Shown here piece by piece: positions 19,884 to 31,136 of a stretch of 32,000 nucleotides of DNA. Position 1 is the stretch's first letter. Each line of letters starts with the position of its first letter. The stretch lies in assembly GCA_003144275.1 (NCBI GenBank), contig NJBF01000007.1:60001-92000 (forward strand). Direction: 5' to 3'. Below the pieces are notes generated by a model. That model saw only the letters and a list, made by a program, of their open reading frames with translations, did no database searches and was not told the origin of the DNA. The position numbers and the translations under genes are program-made. Source of the DNA: Candidatus Heimdallarchaeota archaeon B3_Heim. Lineage in GTDB: Archaea; Asgardarchaeota; Heimdallarchaeia; Hodarchaeales; Hodarchaeaceae.

Positions 19884-21218
19884 ATGGCTGATGTGACCGA
19901 CAAAATTAAAGAAGCTTTACAAGCTGGGAGATCGGGCCAAGTCAGTCGAAAAACCCCATATGAGCGATTTGGATTCCAACAGAATCCTTTTCAGCTGAAA
20001 TCTACTCATAGTATTGAAGAATCATTAATTATGCGTGAAGATGTATTAATTAACTTTGCCACACAAATTGGCTATGCTATTCGATTGTTTGAAGAGGATT
20101 CTTCTTCACCATTCCGTCATCAACTTACCCATGGCATACATGGTAGTGGCAAAACCACTGTAGCACAGCATTTTACTGAAGAATGGGAAAAATTCGGTTT
20201 TAATGATTATGAAACGATATTTACCAGTTTAAAGAACTGGCGGGAACCTCAACAAGATCGTGGGTTATATAGTGCCTCATCAAAAACTCTACAGACATAT
20301 GAACGATTTCTTAATGAGATACTTCGTGCGACAAAACCACTTATAGTCTTCGTTGACGATTTTGACTATACTGTTACAGGTACATCCGCTATTCCACGTT
20401 GTTCAGAATTTTTTGGTGATATCATATCTAGAGCCCCCTTCGGTGCAATTATTATCGCATTAGTTAGTAGTCTTACACTTATTGTTTTATCTGAAACTGA
20501 GAATACTAACCTATCTAGATCTTTCTATTCAAATTTCAATCCTGATCATTTCTTTTTCCCAGTATTTTCAAAAACAGAGGTTCGTCAATTGCTTACCAAG
20601 CGCCTACGGGACGTTCGTAAACCCATTGACCTTTTCTCTGTGAAATCTTTGGAAGTAATAGCTGATCATAGTATGGGCCTTCCTACTATTGCATTGAAGA
20701 TTGCGTCTGCATGCTTACATGAATTAATTACACAAAACATTGAAAGAGTTACCTCATCCTTAGTTAAGAATGTTATTAAGCAAGCAGGTTTTCGAAATGC
20801 TGTATCATTAATAGAATCTTTAGATCGTGATGAGGGAGATGAATCTGTCAATATTTTCACCCCAAAAAGACGTGATATAGTCATTTCTATCCTTCAACAT
20901 CAAACACGTGAGAGGTTCTTTTTCCCACCGACTGGTGTTGATGGTCTAACGATATCAAACCTTGCCCAACAATTTGGTGTTAACTTATCAACTATGAATT
21001 ATCACATTAAACCTCTAACACAAACCCTGCCAATCCCCATTCTTGAAAGTCAGGATGATGTTCATGATGCTAGATCGAAAATTCTCAAAGTAGATATGAA
21101 AACACCCATTGCCAGCGCCCTTGAAATTTTGGCAGTCTACCATAGACTTCAACCCGAACGCTATCATGTCAGTACACATTCGATACAAGTAGGACATAGG
21201 GAGGATGAAAAAACTTGA
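19884..21218 (+). CDS. AAA+ ATPase with C-terminal winged-helix (Orc1/Cdc6-like or ExeA-like architecture)
   Basis: YERFGFQQNPF, Walker A GIHGSGKTT, Walker B LIVFVDDFD, lid FSKTEVRQLLTKRL...SMGLPTIAL, wHTH LTISNLAQQFGVNLSTMNYHIKPL. Confidence 0.8.
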   Translation: MADVTDKIKEALQAGRSGQVSRKTPYERFGFQQNPFQLKSTHSIEESLIMREDVLINFATQIGYAIRLFEEDSSSPFRHQLTHGIHGSGKTTVAQHFTEEWEKFGFNDYETIFTSLKNWREPQQDRGLYSASSKTLQTYERFLNEILRATKPLIVFVDDFDYTVTGTSAIPRCSEFFGDIISRAPFGAIIIALVSSLTLIVLSETENTNLSRSFYSNFNPDHFFFPVFSKTEVRQLLTKRLRDVRKPIDLFSVKSLEVIADHSMGLPTIALKIASACLHELITQNIERVTSSLVKNVIKQAGFRNAVSLIESLDRDEGDESVNIFTPKRRDIVISILQHQTRERFFFPPTGVDGLTISNLAQQFGVNLSTMNYHIKPLTQTLPIPILESQDDVHDARSKILKVDMKTPIASALEILAVYHRLQPERYHVSTHSIQVGHREDEKT

Positions 21219-21290
21219 ATACACCCCTTAGTGAAATTTTACAATATTTAATAACAAAAAAATCTCTGATAGAGAGTCCATTAAAATTAG

Positions 21291-21722
21291 ATGAAGGAAT
21301 TAACCGTGCCAAGTAATCTAGAACTTTTACCTCTTAAAGACCTTACCACTGAATATTGTCGATTGCGTGGTCTAACTATCGATCAGAACACCTCACGGGC
21401 TAGTAATCGTCGTTGGGATTTTGTCATTCAAAATGGTGGCGATAAGGAAGGTATAGGAATTACAATAAAGGACTGGAGACGTGCAGTAGGTGTGGATATA
21501 ATCATTCGTGCCGAACAATTAATGAAAGCCAGTCGCTTTGTTTCAAAAGTCTTACTCGTTTCCAATCATTTTTCTGACCCCGCACGTTCTTTAGCGGAAA
21601 AAATTGGTATTTTTCTATTAACCAAGAATGATCTCATTGAGATTATATCAACATCGAATTCCCCTCAAGAGGAACCGTGGGCGGATCATTCAGACAATCA
21701 TGAGAATATTGTCCTCCAATGA
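21291..21722 (+). CDS. Mrr-like restriction-endonuclease-fold protein, probably degenerate
   Basis: WDFVIQ...IGITIKDWRRAVGVDII...VLLVSNHFSDPARSLAEKIGIFLL follows the Mrr_cat pattern, but the (Q/E)xK residue is Thr. Confidence 0.7.
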   Translation: MKELTVPSNLELLPLKDLTTEYCRLRGLTIDQNTSRASNRRWDFVIQNGGDKEGIGITIKDWRRAVGVDIIIRAEQLMKASRFVSKVLLVSNHFSDPARSLAEKIGIFLLTKNDLIEIISTSNSPQEEPWADHSDNHENIVLQ

Positions 21723-21729
21723 CTTTTAT

Positions 21730-22155
21730 TTACCTTTGAGAATCTATGGCAAATGTTAGGAATACCAACGTAGGAATGGTCTTCTGTACTCGTTGGTAGT
21801 GGTAGACAAAATAATCATGCCGGGGAGTAAATATATCTAGTAAGAGCGGGGAAGTAGTGGTCAAGTCGAGAATTTTTTCAACTATCCACTTTTCTAGCTG
21901 CGCACCAAGAAGAATATAAAGCTGTTTTCGCTTCTGAAAAATTAATGGTAAATATAATTCTCCCCAAAGTGATGAGGGAAGAATTTCACACAGATAATCC
22001 AAGTCTATTCGATTAACTTCTGATATCTGATTATTTCTGATAGTAAAAGTCGGAGTTTCTAGTAGCGATTCTAAAGACATCTTTTTACGGGGGAGAGAGC
22101 CATAGATTTTCTCTTTTTCAGCTTTCCACAAGCCATTAATTAGTCTCTTCGACAT
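21730..22155 (-). CDS. DUF61 / UPF0216-family protein
   Basis: LPRKKMSLESLL...DLDYLCEILPSSLWGELYLPLIF matches the archaeal DUF61 pattern as recalled. Confidence 0.65.
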   Translation of the reverse strand: MSKRLINGLWKAEKEKIYGSLPRKKMSLESLLETPTFTIRNNQISEVNRIDLDYLCEILPSSLWGELYLPLIFQKRKQLYILLGAQLEKWIVEKILDLTTTSPLLLDIFTPRHDYFVYHYQRVQKTIPTLVFLTFAIDSQR

Positions 22156-22236
22156 TGAAATTACTTACTTCCTATTGCATTATAATAGACTATAATTCCA
22201 ATAGAGTATAACCTTAACGAATTGAAATATATATTT

Positions 22237-22959
22237 TTAACGTCTTCTTCTGAACTTGACGTCAGTTGATTCTTCAGGTTTCGTTTCAGGTGAATCACTT
22301 CCACGGGATTCAGCAAGTTCACGTAATTCTTTAAGCTCAGTTTTTCTCTGTTTAATGGATTTTTCTCGTCTTGAAATACTTGTACTATCGCTACCAAGTG
22401 CTTTCGTTCTTCTTCGAGAAGAAACAATAGCCCAAGATAATAGTCCTACAGCAACAATCGTTCCTCCTCCGCCAAAGATGAGAATATTACCAATATCAGC
22501 GAAAGGGTTACTAGCGGTAGTGGTGGTGGTAGTAGTTGTGGTAGTGGTGTCAGATTCACCACCAGAGGCATCATACCTTATTGATAACAATGTTACTTCA
22601 AAATAATAGTTTGTTCCTTGTTCTAACGCAGTAAATTTCTTTTTTTCATTCACGCTTAAACCAATTATTCCTTCTTTGAATCCTAAAAAAAAGGCTGCTT
22701 CGGCTTCAGGATATAATGCAGCAACATCAGGTGGAACCACTGAATCTTGAGCAAGATATACATAATCAAAGCTGTTGTTTTCAACAATCTCAGTATAATC
22801 AGAGTACTCAAATCGTAAGTAATGAACATCAACTACGTCACCCCAGTCAGCAGTGACGGTTGCACTAGCTAATTCTGCAGTATTTATCCAAAAAGTTAGT
22901 AAGAGAACAAAAACGGCCGTTTTAGTTAGAGATCTTCGTTTAAATGATGAATAAAGCAT
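22237..22959 (-). CDS. Secreted, single-pass membrane protein with FKBP-type PPIase-like domain
   Basis: Signal peptide ending ASA; GDVVDVHY...GFKEGIIGLSVNEKKKF...YFEVTLLSI; T11 linker; TM helix; charged cytoplasmic tail ending KFRRRR. Confidence 0.7.
   Translation of the reverse strand: MLYSSFKRRSLTKTAVFVLLLTFWINTAELASATVTADWGDVVDVHYLRFEYSDYTEIVENNSFDYVYLAQDSVVPPDVAALYPEAEAAFFLGFKEGIIGLSVNEKKKFTALEQGTNYYFEVTLLSIRYDASGGESDTTTTTTTTTTTASNPFADIGNILIFGGGGTIVAVGLLSWAIVSSRRRTKALGSDSTSISRREKSIKQRKTELKELRELAESRGSDSPETKPEESTDVKFRRRR
22516..22548 (-). repeat. Poly-Thr (11 codons) linker, coding
   Basis: Eleven consecutive Thr codons between the FKBP-like domain and the TM helix. Confidence 0.85.
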
Positions 22960-23188
22960 AAATATAGTAGTTTATAAAAAATCTATATCTTTTATGTTTG
23001 TACGCACAATTCTTCGTTCGCTGTTCTCAAGTGTCGAAGGATAAGTTAGCAGGGAAATCGATCATAATACTTATCACAGAAGCTCTTTTAAGAATCGAAT
23101 GCTGAAAATGAATAAATACTTCCAAATTAGATGGAACAGCTAAATCTTATTGAAGCTAGAAATAAAGACCATAATAAGAGGTTTAATA

Positions 23189-23968
23189 ATGCACGATAAA
23201 TCATCAGAATTAGTTATTCGAACAGATGCGGATCAAACCATTTGTGAATGCACCCGTGATATTTCCCCCGAATGGATTGTTGTTGGTTTTCCTGGTCACG
23301 GTTTGGTAGGTAATATTGCAGCTAAACACATCATTAGTGAACTGAATTTAGAGTGGATCGGTTCTATACGTTCTCCATTGATACCTCCAGTGTCTGTGTT
23401 CATTGATGGAGTACTGGCATATCCTTACCGAATATATGGTTGTAAAGACAAGGAAATTGGAATTCTCATAGGCGAATCTCCCTGTCCTCCCCAGGCATAT
23501 TACTATCTAGCACGAGCAATGATGCAATGGGCGAGAAGTAATGGTACCAAACAGGTTATTTGTTTAGATGGATTTGTAGCTGATCCTCGTGAGAATAAAT
23601 CAGACGAGGTTTATCTGGTTTGTGAACCTCAAGTCTATCAAGAGAATGAGGAGCTAAAAAACCATAATTTCCCAAAACCACATACTGGTTTTATTTCTGG
23701 TTTATCAGGAGCAATTATGAATGAGGCTTTGCTGAGTCCTATTGAAGGGATTTCTCTTTTAACACCAATCTCAACTCCTTATCCTGATCCTGGTGGAGCA
23801 GCCCGGCTTATTGAAGCATTAAGCAAGATTAAAGGGCTTAATATTGATGTTACAAAACTCTTAGGGGATGCAGAAAAGATACAGAAATCTTTAATGGAAC
23901 TCGCGGACAAGAATCGTCAAATTTCTCAACAAGAAACACTAGGCCCCAGTAAAGGCCTTTACGTTTAA
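23189..23968 (+). CDS. PAC2-family proteasome assembly chaperone (start reassigned to ATG 23189)
   Basis: VVGFPGHGLVGNIAAKHII, PYRIYG, CLDGF, GFISGLSGAI, PDPGGAARLIEAL; GAGGT RBS at 23178-23182. Confidence 0.9.
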   Translation: MHDKSSELVIRTDADQTICECTRDISPEWIVVGFPGHGLVGNIAAKHIISELNLEWIGSIRSPLIPPVSVFIDGVLAYPYRIYGCKDKEIGILIGESPCPPQAYYYLARAMMQWARSNGTKQVICLDGFVADPRENKSDEVYLVCEPQVYQENEELKNHNFPKPHTGFISGLSGAIMNEALLSPIEGISLLTPISTPYPDPGGAARLIEALSKIKGLNIDVTKLLGDAEKIQKSLMELADKNRQISQQETLGPSKGLYV

Positions 23969-23975
23969 TAGAAGG

Positions 23976-24491
23976 TTATTCCTCAGCCTTATGTGCCCAA
24001 TTGGCAATTATTTCCCATTTGTCAAAATACGGGCATAAGGCCTTAACCAATTTAGATTTTAGATTCGTTTGTTTCTTTTTATCTAACTGCTGGAGTTCTG
24101 AATATGGAAGACTAAGAACCCAGTAATTTTCTTTGGATATAATTTTCTCTTTTTTCAATACTTCAAGAAATTGATCAGAGCCAATGATGAAATGATGCTT
24201 TTCTAAGGTTTCATCTTCAGTAGGTAGACGAAAACTCAATATTAAGAAGCTCTCATTGTTCATAAAAAAAGAAATTTCTAACTTCCACACAATTTTCTGT
24301 TTCTCTCTTCTCCCTGTACATACCTTAATATCCGCATACCTTACATGTTGATTTTTATCAGAGCGGATAATCATATCTACTTTTCCTGTGCTAGCGTAAG
24401 GACTGAAAGATTCAACACCTAATTCAAATAGCTTGATCTGGGTATCTAACTCATCAAAACCTCCTGTTTCATAGTACACATTGTTTTCCAT
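23976..24491 (-). CDS. Putative PD-(D/E)XK nuclease-fold protein (start reassigned to ATG 24491, 171 aa)
   Basis: LFELGVESFSPY..GKVDMIIR....YADIKV resembles motifs II/III of stand-alone PD-(D/E)XK domains. The upstream extension in the ORF track looks like AT-rich intergenic sequence. Confidence 0.5.
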   Translation of the reverse strand: MENNVYYETGGFDELDTQIKLFELGVESFSPYASTGKVDMIIRSDKNQHVRYADIKVCTGRREKQKIVWKLEISFFMNNESFLILSFRLPTEDETLEKHHFIIGSDQFLEVLKKEKIISKENYWVLSLPYSELQQLDKKKQTNLKSKLVKALCPYFDKWEIIANWAHKAEE

Positions 24492-24736
24492 GAGAAAGAA
24501 CGCCCCAAAGTAGTTTCTTCTAAGATTATACTTAATGATTTTATTTATATTCCAATTTGTATCAATGCCCCTTAATAGTACATTGACAAAAATAATCAAA
24601 AGAAGTAAAAATAAAAATCTTTTGAAATTATTTTCCTTTGAGGCTTTTTCGCTTCTCCAATTAATTGTAGGAGATATAACTTGGGCAAGAATCAGGATGA
24701 ATAGATTATTTAGGGACAAATGTTGATTCGAAAGCC

Positions 24737-25705
24737 TCATCCAGGGTGCATTTTAATTCTTTGCTGACACATTGGACACTGATTGAATACTTTTAACCAT
24801 TCTAACAAGTGTGTTCGATGAAAGACATTTCTACATTCAGGACATGTCACTTTTTGTTCACGTGGGCCAACAGATCGCCGACATATTACACAATAATCTT
24901 GGGTTTCAGTAATACCCCCCCACGAATATGTATCTGAATTAACGTGAACTTGAACATCCCCCACGACAATTATATTTTCTCCTGTATCATCTCGTTTCAG
25001 TGTTCCATGTAATTCCCCATTGTCAAGAGCATGTTTTATAACCCGTTGTACAATGGATGAGTCAACCATTAATTCAGGAAGGTCTTTTTGAATACAATAG
25101 AATAAATATCCCAGTTCAACTTCATTTTGTGGACGACTTATTCGCTGATTAATACTCGAGAACAAATGGTTTCTTGTTTTGGCTAATAATATAAGATTTT
25201 GGTGTTTTTTATCAATTTCAAGTAGGACATCCTCCGCAGAGTCGATTACAACTTGTAGGAGTTGTTGTACCTCAGAGGATTGAAAAGGATGTGCAGATAA
25301 ATGCCTTTCACGTTTAGATTGCTCTAGGAAATCAGAGATCGTTTCATTATATCCCTGTACCTGACGTAACACTGTATCAACGTTCGCAAGTAACTGAAGG
25401 GGTTCAATCATATCTACTGAAACAAAAATTTGTTGAATATCTAACCTTCTGTCGTTGAGTTCCCCAAGATAACGTGACACTTCTGTGAAAAAAGGTTGGC
25501 GAAGAGATTGGTTAATTATATGGCCAAATATAACACTAAGAATTATTATTACTATTATTATCAATTGGTCATTGAACGTACTCATACCCGTATTAAAGAA
25601 CATGAAAAGAAAAATAAGACCTGAAATTGTGGCTAAGAAAAGAATGATATTGCCTGTTGTCTTTTCTCGTGATAAACGGGATAGTTTACTCACACTAGTC
25701 GTCAT
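24737..25705 (-). CDS. Membrane-anchored RING-finger protein, putative E3 ubiquitin ligase (start reassigned to ATG 25705)
   Basis: Two N-terminal TM helices, helical mid-region, C-terminal CVIC-x12-CPEC-x4-H-x2-H-LLEW-x6-CPMC; GGTGG RBS-like site upstream. Confidence 0.8.
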   Translation of the reverse strand: MTTSVSKLSRLSREKTTGNIILFLATISGLIFLFMFFNTGMSTFNDQLIIIVIIILSVIFGHIINQSLRQPFFTEVSRYLGELNDRRLDIQQIFVSVDMIEPLQLLANVDTVLRQVQGYNETISDFLEQSKRERHLSAHPFQSSEVQQLLQVVIDSAEDVLLEIDKKHQNLILLAKTRNHLFSSINQRISRPQNEVELGYLFYCIQKDLPELMVDSSIVQRVIKHALDNGELHGTLKRDDTGENIIVVGDVQVHVNSDTYSWGGITETQDYCVICRRSVGPREQKVTCPECRNVFHRTHLLEWLKVFNQCPMCQQRIKMHPG

Positions 25706-25818
25706 GTAGCCACCGAATAGGTCTAAGGGAATGAGTCGAAGCTTCAAATAATAACTGCCATTGAATTAATAAAAAGTAGACTAGTTAATAATTCCGCAAT
25801 AATTTTCATATTTTGAAA

Positions 25819-26793
25819 CTATTCACCCAGAAAAGACACACTGTGATCCGAAAGGACTAAAGAATATGTTATGTCATGTTTTACAAATGAATTCGGGAGA
25901 ACTACTGAATTTTGTACTTTTACTCCATCACTTATTGAACAAAAGTCTCCAATTACTGAATTTGTTACTTTATTAGGCGTTGGGTTTTCTACCTCCTTTC
26001 CAATGAGATTACCATTGGAATCTTCTAATTCAACACTTTTTAAAAATTCGAGATTAGTGTTCCATAAATCATAGGCATTACTGATGTGATAAACTTGTGA
26101 TGCAATCTTTCCTCCAACTCTTTTGCCCAGATTAATTAGTTTCATGATTGCGGGAGCTAATTCGTACTCATTTCGAATTGATTTGTCAGTTTCCTTTAAT
26201 GCATCAAATATGGCAGGTGTAAAGATATAAAGAGCTGCTGAGCTTAAGTTACTCAATACTTCGGCCCTTGTCTGAGGTTTCTCACGAATATTCCACACAC
26301 GTCCATTACTATAATCAACTGTGGAACTTTTACACATCTGTTCATAATTCATCTCCTCTAGTGATAGTGTGATAATATTACTTGCATTTAGATGAGTTTT
26401 TGATAACTTCTCTAAATAATCTGCTGAAAATAATGAATCACCAGCAAGCACAATGAAATTATCATACTCTACATACTTCTCTATTTGAAGTACTGCATGT
26501 CCAGTTCCTAAGGGGTCTTTTTGTACAATAAAACAAAATTCTAGATCAGGATAGACCGTGTTAAGTATTTTTTGAATTTGTTGTTCTTCTGGCTTAATAA
26601 CAACTGAAATTTGGTTGATTCCAGCCAATAGTAACCTTTTAATGGAATGAATAATCATGGGAATGTTAACAATTGGAAGTAACGGCTTGCTAATCAACTG
26701 AGAAAAGGGATACATACGAGTCCCCCTTCCTGCAGCCAAAATATAAGCAGGAAGGTTACTTTTGCCCATTCCTGCAAGAAAATTCATAATCAA
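25819..26793 (-). CDS. Sugar-phosphate nucleotidyltransferase (RmlA/GlmU-like) with short C-terminal beta-helix
   Basis: ILAAGRGTRMYP...KPLLPI, QKDPLGTGHAV, LAGDSL, IREKP, RNEYEL, hexapeptide repeats NSVIGDFCSISDGVKVQNSVV. Confidence 0.9.
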   Translation of the reverse strand: MIMNFLAGMGKSNLPAYILAAGRGTRMYPFSQLISKPLLPIVNIPMIIHSIKRLLLAGINQISVVIKPEEQQIQKILNTVYPDLEFCFIVQKDPLGTGHAVLQIEKYVEYDNFIVLAGDSLFSADYLEKLSKTHLNASNIITLSLEEMNYEQMCKSSTVDYSNGRVWNIREKPQTRAEVLSNLSSAALYIFTPAIFDALKETDKSIRNEYELAPAIMKLINLGKRVGGKIASQVYHISNAYDLWNTNLEFLKSVELEDSNGNLIGKEVENPTPNKVTNSVIGDFCSISDGVKVQNSVVLPNSFVKHDITYSLVLSDHSVSFLGE

Positions 26794-26861
26794 AAAGATT
26801 TAAGGGAATTGATTTAATATACTTACGTGTCTCCTTTTTCCAAAAATTCAATCATTCTCGA

Positions 26862-27659
26862 TTGAAGGAGTCAAGAAAATTAATGGTTCTTCTCAAAGCG
26901 GTCTATTTCATTACTGATGAAGGATTTAACATTTATAGTCAATCCTTTGAGTCAACGGATCGAGACCAAGATATGGTTAGCAGTCTAATATTAGCATTAC
27001 AAACATTCGGGAAGGAAGTTATGTCTGAAAATGTTTTACAAACAGTGGGCTTTAGAGGTGCTCAAGATGAAGATAACGAGGGGAAAGATATAGAAGGAAC
27101 ACGAATGATTCTTGAACAAGGGGATAGAGTAAACGCTATTTGCTTTGGAATTCTGGATAAGGATAATACGGAACGAGACGAATACAAGTTACGTGGACAA
27201 CTGCGCGTAATTATAAAAGAAGTCGAAGGGCAATACGCAGAAGAATTAAAAGACCCCATCTTCAGAAAAAACGCTTTCACAGGATTAGAAACGCTCATCA
27301 ATACCCGTTTCTTCCGTGACAAAATGTCTCGTATCTACAAGCAGCAATACGCTAGTTTAAATGAATATTTAAAATATCCAAGATCCCTCCTATTCGAACT
27401 GACGCCAAGAGGAATAAAAACCTACAATTTCTACCGTGACTTTCCAGAAGTTCAACAAAAAATGAAAATTATTGCTGTAGAAGAGTTAGATGGCCTTATT
27501 GATGATATAGAGGAACGGAGTAGTATGATATCCTTTCAAGATTGTATTGAACGCTTTGGAACTGATCGAAGCGGGGAAGTTTTTGAATTGCTGAAATTGC
27601 TGACAAGAAAGGGGGTATTTGACGCGTATAACTTTGAACGAGTGAGTATCACCGCGTAA
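26862..27659 (+). CDS. Longin-like domain protein with C-terminal winged-helix (start may be ATG 26883)
   Basis: KAVYFITDEGFNIYSQSF...MVSSLILALQTFGKEV...LRVIIKEVEGQY..L...FTGLETLI fits the longin beta-beta-alpha-beta-beta-beta-alpha-alpha pattern; tail VFELLKLLTRKGVF is wHTH-like. Confidence 0.7.
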   Translation: MKESRKLMVLLKAVYFITDEGFNIYSQSFESTDRDQDMVSSLILALQTFGKEVMSENVLQTVGFRGAQDEDNEGKDIEGTRMILEQGDRVNAICFGILDKDNTERDEYKLRGQLRVIIKEVEGQYAEELKDPIFRKNAFTGLETLINTRFFRDKMSRIYKQQYASLNEYLKYPRSLLFELTPRGIKTYNFYRDFPEVQQKMKIIAVEELDGLIDDIEERSSMISFQDCIERFGTDRSGEVFELLKLLTRKGVFDAYNFERVSITA

Positions 27660-27672
27660 GTGATCAAGTATT

Positions 27673-28548
27673 TTATGATCCCCTCATATCCCTCGATGCC
27701 TTTAAGATAAGTGCAGTTGTTTTCTTGCTCTCCTTCTCCATTCCATCAATTACCGAAATCAACTTAGTATCGACAGCTAAATTAATTTCATTCTTTATAA
27801 CTTCAGGTAATTGAGCAACGGACTGATTTAATCTCTCTACTACTTGAGAGAATCTTTGAATACTACCATCTTGCACCACAAGTCGCTCGGTGACAGAGGT
27901 TTTAAGCTCATTGACGGAATTTTCTAGATTTATGTTAATATGATCACGTAGGGAGGCTAATTCAACTTGGATTATCGCACTCACCCTATCTCGAAGATCA
28001 GCCACTGTTGCCAGTTGATCAGTCTGATTTTCGATCAAAGAATTTAGATTACTTTCCATCGTTTTTAAGTCATCAGAGATTGAGACGAAACTATTAATGC
28101 TCACTTCATACTGATTACTTGTTTTTTCGGTGGAATTATGAACCATAGTGGTTAAACTCTCTGATAATACCTTCATCCGTCCCACAACATCATCGACATA
28201 TCCAGCTTTTATAGTATTAAGATCTTCTTCAATTTTCCTCTCTGTAGATTTGAAATTAGTCTCCAGTTCATTTAATGATGACTCCAGTGTGGCAAGAACA
28301 GGTGGTAGTTGAGCGATAGAGGCGAGAAGTTCTGGATTGAGTCCCTCATAGGACTCCTGCACATGTCGAATAATGGTTCGAGCAGATTCTTGGAATTTTT
28401 CATCAATCGCCAAGGCGACATCAGAAAAATTACGAATGGAGGTTTCAAGTTCTTGTCGGATTTGAGAAACATCCTGACTCTGTTGAAGCATTTGAAAGAT
28501 CTTTATATTTACGTCATATATTAGTTTCAGGCTTTCTTCGATTCCCAA
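27673..28548 (-). CDS. All-alpha extended coiled-coil protein
   Basis: Nearly continuous heptads rich in L/I/E/S/N/Q, no TM segment, few Gly/Pro. Confidence 0.75.
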   Translation of the reverse strand: MGIEESLKLIYDVNIKIFQMLQQSQDVSQIRQELETSIRNFSDVALAIDEKFQESARTIIRHVQESYEGLNPELLASIAQLPPVLATLESSLNELETNFKSTERKIEEDLNTIKAGYVDDVVGRMKVLSESLTTMVHNSTEKTSNQYEVSINSFVSISDDLKTMESNLNSLIENQTDQLATVADLRDRVSAIIQVELASLRDHININLENSVNELKTSVTERLVVQDGSIQRFSQVVERLNQSVAQLPEVIKNEINLAVDTKLISVIDGMEKESKKTTALILKASRDMRGS

Positions 28549-28705
28549 GTTCTCACTTCACTCTTCTATCCCAATATTGTTTAGGAACAGATTGTGATTA
28601 ATTTTACTAAAGGTGTATCTACAATAAGTTTTCTATTTATGATTGCACTAAGAAGAAATATAAATCCATATTAGTGTGAGAAATAAGTATAAACCGTAGT
28701 AGATT

Positions 28706-29713
28706 TCATTTAAGTCGCCGTAGTAATACAATAAACCGATCATTCTGCAAAATAGCATCATTTAATCGATGAATTAACACAATGGTTTCTGAATACACGA
28801 ATTGTCTGAAATCATTTCCTCTAGCAAGCTGAAATTCTTTTTGGATGTCTTTCACAACGGAAAAGGATACATTTGGAATCCTAGATTCTAAATCACCTGG
28901 TCCTAGATTATATTGCTGGAGGACTGAAGTACTGATGCGTATTGTGTCCTGCAAAGTACGATTCCCATTGAGATAGTCTGATGTATTTGATATATATTTT
29001 TTAATGATGTTTTGAATAATTAATTCTTCTGAAGCATCCAATTCTATCTTACTCTGTAATGGGAACATCTTTTTTAAGTTCTGCAATAATCTCGCTGCAG
29101 GTGCTTCTCGTAGAAGCTTAAAAATCAAATCTTTAATTTTTATACATGGAAACTGTATGACTTCATGAGAATTAGGATGTGGAATCTCTTGTGTTAGAGC
29201 ATATCTTTGAATTTCTTTACACCCATGGAGATAAAAAGTGGGGAATGCGAGATTGGATAAATTTGCATAAGAATTCATTAGTGCTTCAACGGATTCAATT
29301 ATACCCCATTTATCAATTAGACTTTCATACCTATTGAAACCTTTAATTATTTCTTTATTCTTTTCTACTAGGGTGGAAGTATCATCAAATTGTTCGGTTT
29401 GATCGTTAGTATCAGATACTCCAATAATTTCAGTAAGTTTGAGATCTAATTTTTCTACAAGATCTATAAAAACGGGTTTTGCTTCTTTTAACGTTAACAA
29501 ATTTGGCAAAGCTGAATGAACTGTTCTTAGTTCCTTGTACAATCCATCAGGGATATTTTCTCGGTCACTGATATACGAGCTGAGTGTAATAATCAAATTC
29601 AAACTGGTTAGATTTAAATTGATTAGGAAATCTAATTTGTTCTCTAGCACTTCAAGAGGTCTCTGATTGGAAGAATGACCTTCTGGGGGATGTTGATCTT
29701 CATTAAAATTCAT
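28706..29713 (-). CDS. Hypothetical alpha-helical protein
   Basis: 335-aa ORF starting 43 nt downstream of the tubulin-like gene on the same strand; no recognisable motif. Confidence 0.7.
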   Translation of the reverse strand: MNFNEDQHPPEGHSSNQRPLEVLENKLDFLINLNLTSLNLIITLSSYISDRENIPDGLYKELRTVHSALPNLLTLKEAKPVFIDLVEKLDLKLTEIIGVSDTNDQTEQFDDTSTLVEKNKEIIKGFNRYESLIDKWGIIESVEALMNSYANLSNLAFPTFYLHGCKEIQRYALTQEIPHPNSHEVIQFPCIKIKDLIFKLLREAPAARLLQNLKKMFPLQSKIELDASEELIIQNIIKKYISNTSDYLNGNRTLQDTIRISTSVLQQYNLGPGDLESRIPNVSFSVVKDIQKEFQLARGNDFRQFVYSETIVLIHRLNDAILQNDRFIVLLRRLK

Positions 29714-29756
29714 AGTGATAATCTACCTCTTTACCTATCTATTCACATGATTTATA

Positions 29757-31136
29757 TCATTTATTTGCCTGGGTTTGTTCAGGTGTAATATAGTAACCAA
29801 ACAATTTTTCGAGATCGCTTACAGCATCCTCTAATTCTTGTTTTGTTGTACCTTTTGAGCGTTTAAACCAGTGTTGTTTCAATTCTGAATCACCACTGTG
29901 TAAACGTATCAACGATTTTGCTTCTTCTAATATATCATATAATTCTGGTATTCGTGGTAGGCCGAACAACAACAAAAGAGAGGCTCGTGCTTTCTCATCA
30001 TCATAAGCACAATAAGTTGGGGAAATACTTGCACCTTTAGCCAAAAAAGGACTAAGAGCTTTTTTCAATAATGGATCAAATTCAACTCGTGCAATTTCTT
30101 TAGGTCCACTCAATACGGAAAATACTGATGAAGCAGCGGGGTTTGTTCCCATATTAGTTAAACTGCAATGTGCAGCAGTATATTCAACTGCTGCGGCTAA
30201 TTGATTCCCTACATCTCCTACTTCAGGGAAAATGGATAAATCATCAAACATCGCTGGAACAACCACACTATCCAATTTGAGTGCGAAATCTCCGATATCT
30301 GTTGTAGGTAAGACCTCTTTACCTAGTTCAGGTACTCCTGGTGAGAGCATTTCTGCAATAGATTCAAGTGCTAGCGGATTTACAAGTTCAACAAATGCTT
30401 CTTCCATCTGAACGGGAAGAGGGGTGTTTGTTTGGCCTAAAACATTTGGTCTGGTCACATTACTATCTAATGCTGTAAGATCCAGGCCTTTCTCCCGTGT
30501 TATTAAATCAGCCGCTTCTCCCCTTTGCATACTTAATACACGACTCAACATAGTATTATTTGAAAGGAGTAGGATTAGATCGGGACCCATGTTTCCTTCC
30601 TCTAATTGTAATCGAAGGAGTTTAGATAAAGCCCATACGCTGTTCACAGCTTCAGATGATTGGTTTACGAAAGGTAAAACTCCGAATACATAGATGAAAA
30701 TTTTTCGCTTCTCTTGCTCTGCAAACCTTTTTCGCAATAAGCGAATTAAGGCAGGAGTGCCTCCACAACCTGTTCCTCCTCCAAAGCTTGTGAAAATGCA
30801 AAAACCACTGATTCCTTCATAGCCTAATGCCTGCAATTGATTTAAAATTATATCTTCAGAGTCAATAACTGATTCATAACCAGCAGAGAATTTTCCACCC
30901 ACGCCAATTTCTGCATCAGAATAAAGCAGGGTACGCTTCGATGAAATAGAGTACTTTTTTCTCGCTTTTAATAGATCTCCCCTATCGGTATTCATCACTA
31001 AATATTCACGAATACGCGTAGGGAGTTCTCCTTTCTCAGATTTCGCCAAATAGCTACCTACCAGGTTGCTCCCGCATTCTCCAATTCCGATTGCGAATAC
31101 AGATGCTTCTGATCCTTCTAATTTTACATCAGACAT
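29757..31136 (-). CDS. Tubulin/FtsZ-superfamily GTPase (CetZ-like/divergent)
   Basis: T1 IGIGECGSN, T2 MNTDRGDL, T3 GVGGKFSAG, T4 signature SFGGGTGCGG, VLPF, T7 TTDIGDF; GGTGAT RBS at 31143-31148. Confidence 0.9.
   Translation of the reverse strand: MSDVKLEGSEASVFAIGIGECGSNLVGSYLAKSEKGELPTRIREYLVMNTDRGDLLKARKKYSISSKRTLLYSDAEIGVGGKFSAGYESVIDSEDIILNQLQALGYEGISGFCIFTSFGGGTGCGGTPALIRLLRKRFAEQEKRKIFIYVFGVLPFVNQSSEAVNSVWALSKLLRLQLEEGNMGPDLILLLSNNTMLSRVLSMQRGEAADLITREKGLDLTALDSNVTRPNVLGQTNTPLPVQMEEAFVELVNPLALESIAEMLSPGVPELGKEVLPTTDIGDFALKLDSVVVPAMFDDLSIFPEVGDVGNQLAAAVEYTAAHCSLTNMGTNPAASSVFSVLSGPKEIARVEFDPLLKKALSPFLAKGASISPTYCAYDDEKARASLLLLFGLPRIPELYDILEEAKSLIRLHSGDSELKQHWFKRSKGTTKQELEDAVSDLEKLFGYYITPEQTQANK

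Follow-up and report, generated by a model that had tools for sequence, protein, structure and literature searches.

A candidate E3 ubiquitin ligase of the membrane-anchored RING type, confined to a single genus-level Hodarchaeales lineage

In eukaryotes, the sorting and destruction of membrane proteins relies on RING ligases that are themselves membrane-bound, and the Hodarchaeales have been proposed as the closest relative of eukaryotes. To our knowledge, the archaeal RING ligases tested at the bench so far are all small, soluble and operon-encoded. Here we describe a gene (the RING gene) found in a 32,000-nucleotide stretch of Candidatus Heimdallarchaeota archaeon B3_Heim (assembly GCA_003144275.1, contig NJBF01000007.1, positions 60,001 to 92,000; the whole stretch is called the window below). 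Its product, the RING protein, has 322 amino acids. A basic N-terminal tail leads into a membrane hairpin of two helices; a three-helix bundle, an acidic winged helix and a flexible linker follow, and a RING forms the C-terminus (Table 1). The domain architecture, the predicted topology, the homology of the RING, the conservation of its E2 contacts and the presence of a ubiquitin system in the genome were all obtained directly. We take the most likely product to be an E3 ubiquitin ligase of the RING type, anchored in the membrane and peculiar to a single genus-level Hodarchaeales lineage, and give this reading a probability of about 0.6.

The archaeal small RING finger proteins (srfp), namely that of Caldiarchaeum (PMC5654768) and the operonic RING E3 of Helarchaeia (10.1101/2023.07.25.550441), carry the same RING variant, with an extra Cys before C3 and shifted C3/H4 positions, and share with the RING protein a conserved Ile between C1 and C2 and a conserved Trp. 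The srfp of Caldiarchaeum subterraneum, which has this same shift and extra Cys, shows E3 activity in vitro, for which I30, W58 and R69 are needed (PMC5654768). An Asgard cascade of E1, E2 and RING E3 has likewise been reconstituted and is functional in vitro (10.1101/2023.07.25.550441). The RING protein differs from these proteins by its length (322 residues against approximately 70 to 100), by the addition of the membrane hairpin, the three-helix bundle and the winged helix, by its non-operonic gene, and by the residue at its linchpin position, mostly His or Gln.

In eukaryotes, RNF24, the plant ATL proteins (for example EL5) and the PA-TM-RING proteins (RNF13/GRAIL) likewise combine an N-terminal membrane anchor with a cytoplasmic C-terminal finger of the RING-H2 type, and the RINGs of RNF24 and EL5 are among the best sequence matches of the RING protein. 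However, an exhaustive profile search detected no homology to these ligases outside the RING. The RING protein moreover has a hairpin anchor with both termini predicted inside, a bundle and a winged helix between anchor and RING, and a C4H2C2 rather than a C3H2C3 finger. A family that occurs in a single archaeal genus cannot have given rise to the eukaryotic ligases, and the likeness reflects convergence or independent assembly, not ancestry.

The RING finger and the ubiquitin system of the genome

The eight ligands of the finger (C272, C275, C288, C291, H296, H299, C310 and C313) are all invariant in 27 to 30 homologues, which bears out the C4-H2-C2 RING recognized in the original prediction, and the finger is of the type encoded in ubiquitin operons. 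We propose that C272, C275, H296 and H299 form zinc site 1, and C288, C291, C310 and C313 site 2. In an alignment with RING-H2 structures, C291 falls at the C3 position, an Asn (29 of 30 homologues) at the H4 position and H296 at H5, while H299 stands in place of C6. The fourth ligand of site 2 must be given by C288, three residues before C3.

Pfam zf-RING_2 (PF13639) matches the RING protein with E = 5.9e-6; its scores, 26.9 bits on the protein and 30.8 bits on the six-frame open reading frame (ORF), fall on either side of the cut-off of 27.3, and there are precomputed matches in most homologues. A search of the PDB retrieved the RNF24 RING at E = 2.8e-7. A profile of the RING region gave 23 matches among PDB sequences at E <= 1e-3, nearly all of them RING-H2 E3s: Arkadia (7e-8) and RNF24 (3.9e-7), but also RNF165, listerin, RNF4, synoviolin, EL5 and RNF38. 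Local Foldseek matches to the RINGs of RNF126, RNF165, RNF38 and EL5 had a root-mean-square deviation (rmsd) of 1.5 to 2.0 Å over 50 to 52 columns, with a probability of 1.00. As to the residues that contact the E2, the Ile between C1 and C2 (C1+2) is present in 30 of 30 homologues, and W303 and the Pro that follows C7 (P311) are invariant; the Ile and the Trp correspond to I30 and W58 of srfp, both required for its activity (PMC5654768).

The presence in the genome of ubiquitin, E1 and E2, on which the original prediction depended, was established: pro-ubiquitin, E1s, E2s and a JAB protease are all encoded (the genome is 94% complete). A cluster on contig C10 (G000:C10:19579-30221, locus L024) resembles the Hodarchaeia cluster described in 10.1101/2023.07.25.550441. 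It comprises an E2, a 70-residue RING protein, an Arf/Rab-like GTPase, a KaiC-like ATPase, a pro-ubiquitin ending in TGG-MVR (that is, GG followed by MVR), an E1 and an E2 of the ubiquitin E2 variant (UEV) type. The 70-residue RING aligns with ours in hhalign at 97.9% probability (E = 5.5e-13). An operon on contig C86 encodes a ubiquitin-like protein, a 165-residue protein, an E1, an E2, a JAB protease and a six-helix RING protein, and more E1 and E2 genes lie on contigs C57 and C58. Altogether there are five ThiF/E1-like genes and four UQ_con matches above cut-off, one of them also UEV-like; at least three E2s are encoded. No match to Cullin (PF00888) was found in the genome. The best E2 retains the catalytic Cys, the HxN motif, the Phe of loop 4 and the SPA of loop 7. 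Docking of the RING region, given as an alignment, on this E2 with two zinc ions scored 0.30 for a mark of 0.32, which speaks neither for nor against binding.

The six-helix RING protein (G000:C86:25415-26524, minus strand, equal to L025:3413-4525) is the 370-residue product of the last-but-one gene of the C86 operon. In it, about six membrane helices are followed by a linker that is basic and rich in Ser and Arg, and then by the RING at the C-terminus. Its RING is of the same family as that of our protein, with the same cross-brace spacing and an Asp at the sixth ligand position, and both proteins are predicted to be membrane-bound in the same genome. They differ in that the former is polytopic and operonic with E1, E2, ubiquitin-like and JAB genes, whereas the RING protein has only two helices and a gene that stands by itself, and its full-length family does not extend beyond one genus. 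Of the 301 Asgard genomes sampled, 116, from several families, give matches to the six-helix protein, and many of these matches are full-length. This protein is the stronger candidate for an ancient membrane ligase.

More generally, four other RINGs were found in the genome, and all but the C86 finger, the one with Asp, show the C4H2C2 pattern. So do 140 of the 148 best representative RING matches, and 85 of these 148 come with a transmembrane-like segment. Predicted membrane anchoring is thus a common theme for this RING type. One further protein of the genome (G000:C57:97864-99162, minus strand, 433 amino acids) has one N-terminal membrane helix, a long helical region that may be TPR-like, and a C-terminal C4H2C2 RING. 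In five proteins from metagenomes or genome assemblies (P0047, P0049, P0050, P0051 and P0053), N-terminal membrane helices are followed by two tandem C4H2C2 RINGs; this double-RING layout seems to recur among membrane proteins.

Several observations weigh against the RING gene encoding an E3 ligase. The zf-RING_2 score of the protein, 26.9 bits, is borderline with respect to the gathering cut-off of 27.3. The gene lies outside the ubiquitin clusters of C10 and C86. Eukaryotic RINGs carry a linchpin Arg or Lys directly after the last Cys (C8+1), the place of R69 in srfp (PMC5654768). At this position, 30 homologues have H (18), Q (7), R (3), N (1) or Y (1), so that the linchpin Arg is missing in 27 of them, and a basic residue (R/K) is invariant only at C8+3. 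As the linchpin position is mostly non-basic, activation of the E2~ubiquitin conjugate may be weak or may depend on another element. Finally, the family evolves fast outside the RING and the membrane-proximal motifs, with 36 to 38% identity where the neighboring PAC2 has 66 to 74%, and is genus-restricted, and neither conservation nor context points to a substrate.

The absent linchpin, the borderline score and the distance from the ubiquitin clusters would also fit a different role, in which the finger is a non-catalytic, RING-like zinc module and the protein a membrane scaffold or adaptor, binding partners through finger and winged helix with no activation of an E2. The non-canonical ligands, whose spacing (C-x2-C...C-x2-C-x4-H-x2-H) recalls that of PHD fingers, point in the same direction. 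However, the ligand variant is the one found in the active srfp of Caldiarchaeum (PMC5654768) and in the operonic RING of the same genome, the Ile, Trp and Pro of the E2 interface are invariant, and PHD-finger matches (E of 0.5 to 0.8) are far weaker than those to RING-H2 E3s. We consider such a scaffold rather unlikely.

Membrane anchor, helical bundle and winged helix

Two transmembrane helices had been read from the letters, and the hydrophobicity profile upholds them. Both segments are kept in most homologues; six have a single merged stretch or one segment, and one truncated sequence has none. The N-terminal tail contains four Lys or Arg residues and the eight-residue loop between the helices (residues 39-46) contains none; both termini are therefore predicted to be cytoplasmic (N-in/C-in), with the loop outside. 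The helices keep their hydrophobicity and not their sequence: identity to the most distant members of the family is 11 to 37% (11 to 26% for the first helix). The N-terminal tail, in which L11, S12, R13, K15 and N19 are invariant, keeps 68 to 79% identity to these members, the juxtamembrane segment 53 to 73% and the RING 58 to 66%. The juxtamembrane segment (residues 66-80, window positions 25466-25510) forms the first 15 residues of the bundle and carries the highly conserved motif LRQPFFxExSRY. In the predicted topology, the tail and this segment should sit side by side at the inner face of the membrane, where they probably form a binding site.

An AlphaFold2 (AF2) model was built on 27 homologues, with a mean predicted local distance difference test score (pLDDT) of 78.9. 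In this model, the second transmembrane helix runs on as a helix to residue 98 and packs with helices 106-134 and 144-188 in one antiparallel bundle, with helix lengths of 55, 29 and 45 residues. The long helical stalk of the original prediction is hence helical as proposed, but in the model it is a three-helix bundle and not a single stalk. Structural matches of the bundle in the VIA search are generic (GAT, with Z = 11.9, spectrin and CorA) and fall below the level that is meaningful for helical bundles.

The domain that follows has strand 195-197, helices 198-208 and 216-228, and strands 234-238 and 244-248, in the winged-helix order H1, strand, H2, H3, strand, strand, which a separate model of residues 176-262 reproduces. 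The stretch IVQRVIKHALDNGELHG, in which a PCI-like pattern had been noticed, corresponds to helix 3 and the first wing strand of a canonical winged helix. The top VIA match of the domain alone is the PCI winged helix of PCID2 (Z of 9.6 and 9.3, rmsd 2.7 Å over 78 residues), followed by JetA (8.6), Fur (8.5), Scc1 (8.2), UFL1 and a proteasome-lid (Rpn) subunit (8.0), and the winged-helix B domains (WHB) of APC2 and Cul1 (7.1). Foldseek ranks the WHB of Cdc53 first (4.6e-3) and PCID2 second (5.6e-3). The Pfam PCI profile (PF01399) does not match the RING protein at E <= 1, and the six PF01399 matches of the genome (E <= 0.1) do not include it. The helices that precede the domain in the predicted model are three long ones and not the hairpin (TPR-like) repeat of PCI proteins. 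Of the PCI assignment there remain, then, the winged-helix fold and the rank of PCID2, with other winged helices within about 1 Z unit; the profile and the helical repeat are not found. As modeled, the domain is a generic winged helix, its PCI subtype match being tied with the kleisin, Fur and cullin types.

A protein-binding winged helix likewise adjoins a RING in cullins (WHB with Rbx1), in APC2 (WHB with APC11) and in Nse1 (winged helices followed by a variant RING), and Nse1 gave weak matches to the whole model. However, these matches are no better than those to bacterial regulators, and the RING protein is a single chain with a predicted membrane anchor; the likeness is one of architecture only.

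The presence of Fur/Zur, MarR and PadR among the structural matches of the winged helix raises the question of whether the protein could be a membrane-tethered transcription regulator of the ToxR/CadC kind, its zinc finger being an accessory module that binds DNA or a ligand. The domain has an isoelectric point of about 5 and a net negative charge in 27 of 29 homologues, and this acidity argues for a protein-binding rather than a DNA-binding type. In addition, the outer loop, with some eight residues, leaves no sensor domain, and the RING E3 character of the zinc finger is clear. We regard a regulator of this kind as highly improbable.

Genomic neighborhood and family distribution

The RING gene is an intact ORF that most likely starts at the ATG at 25705. 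The equivalent Met is the start in all 42 homologues, which makes the upstream TTG at 25747 an unlikely start. The Shine-Dalgarno-like GGTGG is present in the window and in loci L017 and L019, and is degenerate in more distant loci. In each of the six loci compared, a T-rich, TATA-like word occupies an equivalent aligned position upstream of the gene; the element of the window, TTTTTATTA, is presumably the gene's own promoter. Downstream, T-runs and then an AT-rich box separate the RING gene from a gene of about 170 codons, which probably has its own promoter therefore. The longest ORF of the latter (254 amino acids, from 24740) over-extends, and its product has a weak match to the RAP domain (PF08373, 3.1e-4), below cut-off.

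Table 1. Position of the features of the RING gene and its surroundings in the window
Feature	Position	Strand	Details
Whole RING gene	24737..25705	-	Intact ORF, 322 codons and stop; TGA at 24737-24739
TATA-box-like element TTTTTATTA	25767..25775	-	About 65 nucleotides upstream of ATG
GGTGG, Shine-Dalgarno-like motif	25710..25714	-	5 nucleotides upstream of ATG
Basic cytoplasmic N-tail (predicted), residues 1-19	25649..25705	-	Near-invariant motif LSRLSRxKxxGN
Transmembrane helix 1 (predicted), residues 20-38	25592..25648	-	Kyte-Doolittle 19-residue mean up to 2.39
Transmembrane helix 2 (predicted), residues 47-65	25511..25567	-	Kyte-Doolittle 19-residue mean up to 2.52
Three-helix bundle (predicted), cytoplasmic, residues 66-188	25142..25510	-	AF2 helices 44-98, 106-134, 144-188; pLDDT 80-95
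Acidic winged helix, residues 189-255	24941..25141	-	AF2 model; motifs RPxNEIExDYL, HALxxGEIxG
Linker, residues 256-268	24902..24940	-	pLDDT < 50 for 258-268; least conserved segment
RING, residues 269-318	24752..24901	-	C4-H2-C2 variant of RING-H2
Gene of about 170 codons between RING and PAC2	23976-24488	-	Conserved; homologues 166-177 amino acids
PAC2 gene	23150-23968	+	PF09754 at 6.5e-40
Tubulin/FtsZ-family GTPase gene	29757-31136	-	PF00091, 2e-16; heads conserved block
Twelve-gene collinear block, AAA+/winged helix-turn-helix gene to tubulin-like gene	19884-31136		10-12 of 12 genes found in each of four loci

The neighbors of the RING gene encode an NTP-transferase, the 170-residue protein and PAC2, the last lying two genes away as had been noticed, that is, with one gene between. 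In five homologous loci the same order is found: tubulin-like gene, genes of 335, 291 and 265 amino acids (the last on the opposite strand), NTP-transferase, RING, the gene of about 170 codons, and PAC2, which is read from the opposite strand. Four loci were compared gene by gene; in the two most distant ones, RING is the least conserved product of the block, with 37 to 38% identity against 83% for the tubulin and 66 to 74% for PAC2. Also in this vicinity, a gene at 22237-22959 (minus strand) encodes 240 amino acids. The N-terminus of this product is signal-like, ten Thr stand in a row, and there are a single membrane helix and a basic tail. No Pfam family matches it, and its appearance is that of a small surface protein whose Thr-rich stalk may be glycosylated.

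Could the neighborhood of PAC2, a proteasome-assembly chaperone, point to a quality-control ligase similar to those of endoplasmic reticulum-associated degradation (ERAD), which would target misfolded membrane proteins to the proteasome by extracting or marking them? Such a coupling had been suggested in the original prediction, and each of the five homologous loci examined indeed has the order RING, 170-codon gene, PAC2, even where RING identity is as low as 36%. Moreover, the ERAD ligases Hrd1/synoviolin and gp78/AMFR are also membrane-bound and of the RING-H2 type, and their RINGs are among the sequence matches, at E = 5e-5 (profile) and 0.04 to 0.05. However, the similarity is confined to the RING. 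Hrd1 and gp78 are polytopic, with six to eight helices that are part of a retrotranslocation channel, whereas the RING protein has two helices and no such domain; we know of no endoplasmic reticulum in archaea.

The PAC2 gene itself stands on the strand opposite to the RING gene and is convergent with the intervening gene, and the RING gene has its own conserved TATA-like element. The adjacency is not specific, since the whole block of 12 genes, from tubulin to AAA gene, is collinear in those loci. Around the PAC2 orthologues of four genomes outside the genus (two from its order, two from its class), the other block genes were absent from the flanks fetched, which covered up to about 10 kb on each side in two closed genomes and less than 2 kb downstream on two short contigs. 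The adjacency is best explained by collinearity within one genus, and neither a functional link to PAC2 nor an ERAD-like proteostasis is sustained by these data. With a six-helix RING protein inside a ubiquitin-E1-E2-JAB operon, and much more widespread among Asgard genomes, we find an ERAD-like role of the RING protein improbable.

The family itself is narrowly distributed. A word-index search found 42 homologous proteins at E <= 0.001, with 36 to 94% identity. Nearly all are full-length, three being truncated and covering 63 to 82% of the query, and those with a named source are mostly labeled Hodarchaeales or Hodarchaeota, with a few Heimdall-, Thor- or Promethearchaeota. A profile search of 1.84 billion representatives gave 1,871 matches in total, with five full-length clusters; nearly all of the rest of the 150 best listed cover just the RING region. 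In the 301 sampled Asgard genomes, full-length matches are found only in the GTDB genus of the window, in 17 of the 20 other species genomes, with one additional fragment in this genus (positions 136-324); RING-only matches occur in 147 of the 301. A distant full-length relative, the metagenomic singleton P0060, also has two transmembrane segments, helices, a winged helix and a RING, in a different context, and its winged helix is homologous (hhalign, 85.8%).

Three other proteins were set aside as relatives: P0091 (Odinarchaeota) and P0055, whose regions upstream of the RING are not detectably related, and a RING protein of about 300 amino acids from the same genus, which matches profile positions 234-319 and has an unrelated soluble architecture. 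With the whole model, Foldseek retrieved nothing from the PDB at E <= 0.001 and a wide VIA search gave generic three-helix bundles only. In the ESM Atlas, a structure search had no match at a TM-score >= 0.5 by query, and a feature search had no usable one. These fold searches found no known protein with the whole architecture, which is no proof that none exists. A search of NCBIfam gave noise only. For a role in defense, PADLOC returned zero matches for the RING protein and its five nearest neighbors. Within the library that could be searched, we found no paper on this family or on membrane-anchored RING ligases of Asgard archaea.

Proposed mechanism and significance

How could such a protein act? 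Beyond the architecture of the candidate E3, we infer E2 binding, ligase activity, and the class and fate of its substrates. The two-helix hairpin would anchor it in the cytoplasmic membrane, leaving both ends inside. From there the three-helix bundle, about 120 residues long, would project the acidic, protein-binding winged helix into the cytoplasm, the RING being held on the flexible linker. The RING would then recruit a ubiquitin-charged E2 of the genome's own E1/E2/ubiquitin system and promote direct transfer of the ubiquitin. The substrate would be bound through the winged helix, through the N-tail (residues 1-19) together with residues 66-80, or through both, and would accordingly belong to the membrane proteins or to partners associated with the membrane. 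Its later fate could be sorting by the ESCRT machinery or delivery to Cdc48 and the proteasome. Taken as a whole, this picture of an active E3 that ubiquitylates membrane or membrane-associated proteins, recognized via the membrane-proximal motifs and the winged helix, and passes them to the ubiquitin-binding ESCRT of Asgard archaea or to Cdc48 and the proteasome, is tentative, and we put it forward as possible rather than probable.

The architecture of the RING protein is lineage-specific, and its value is limited by the confinement of the full-length family to one genus; for questions of ancestry, the widespread six-helix operonic RING protein is a more informative target. Isolates of Hodarchaeales have now been reported (10.1101/2025.02.26.640444). 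The soluble part of the RING protein, residues 66-322, makes the candidate easy to express, and the protein is a concrete candidate for ubiquitylation at the archaeal membrane.

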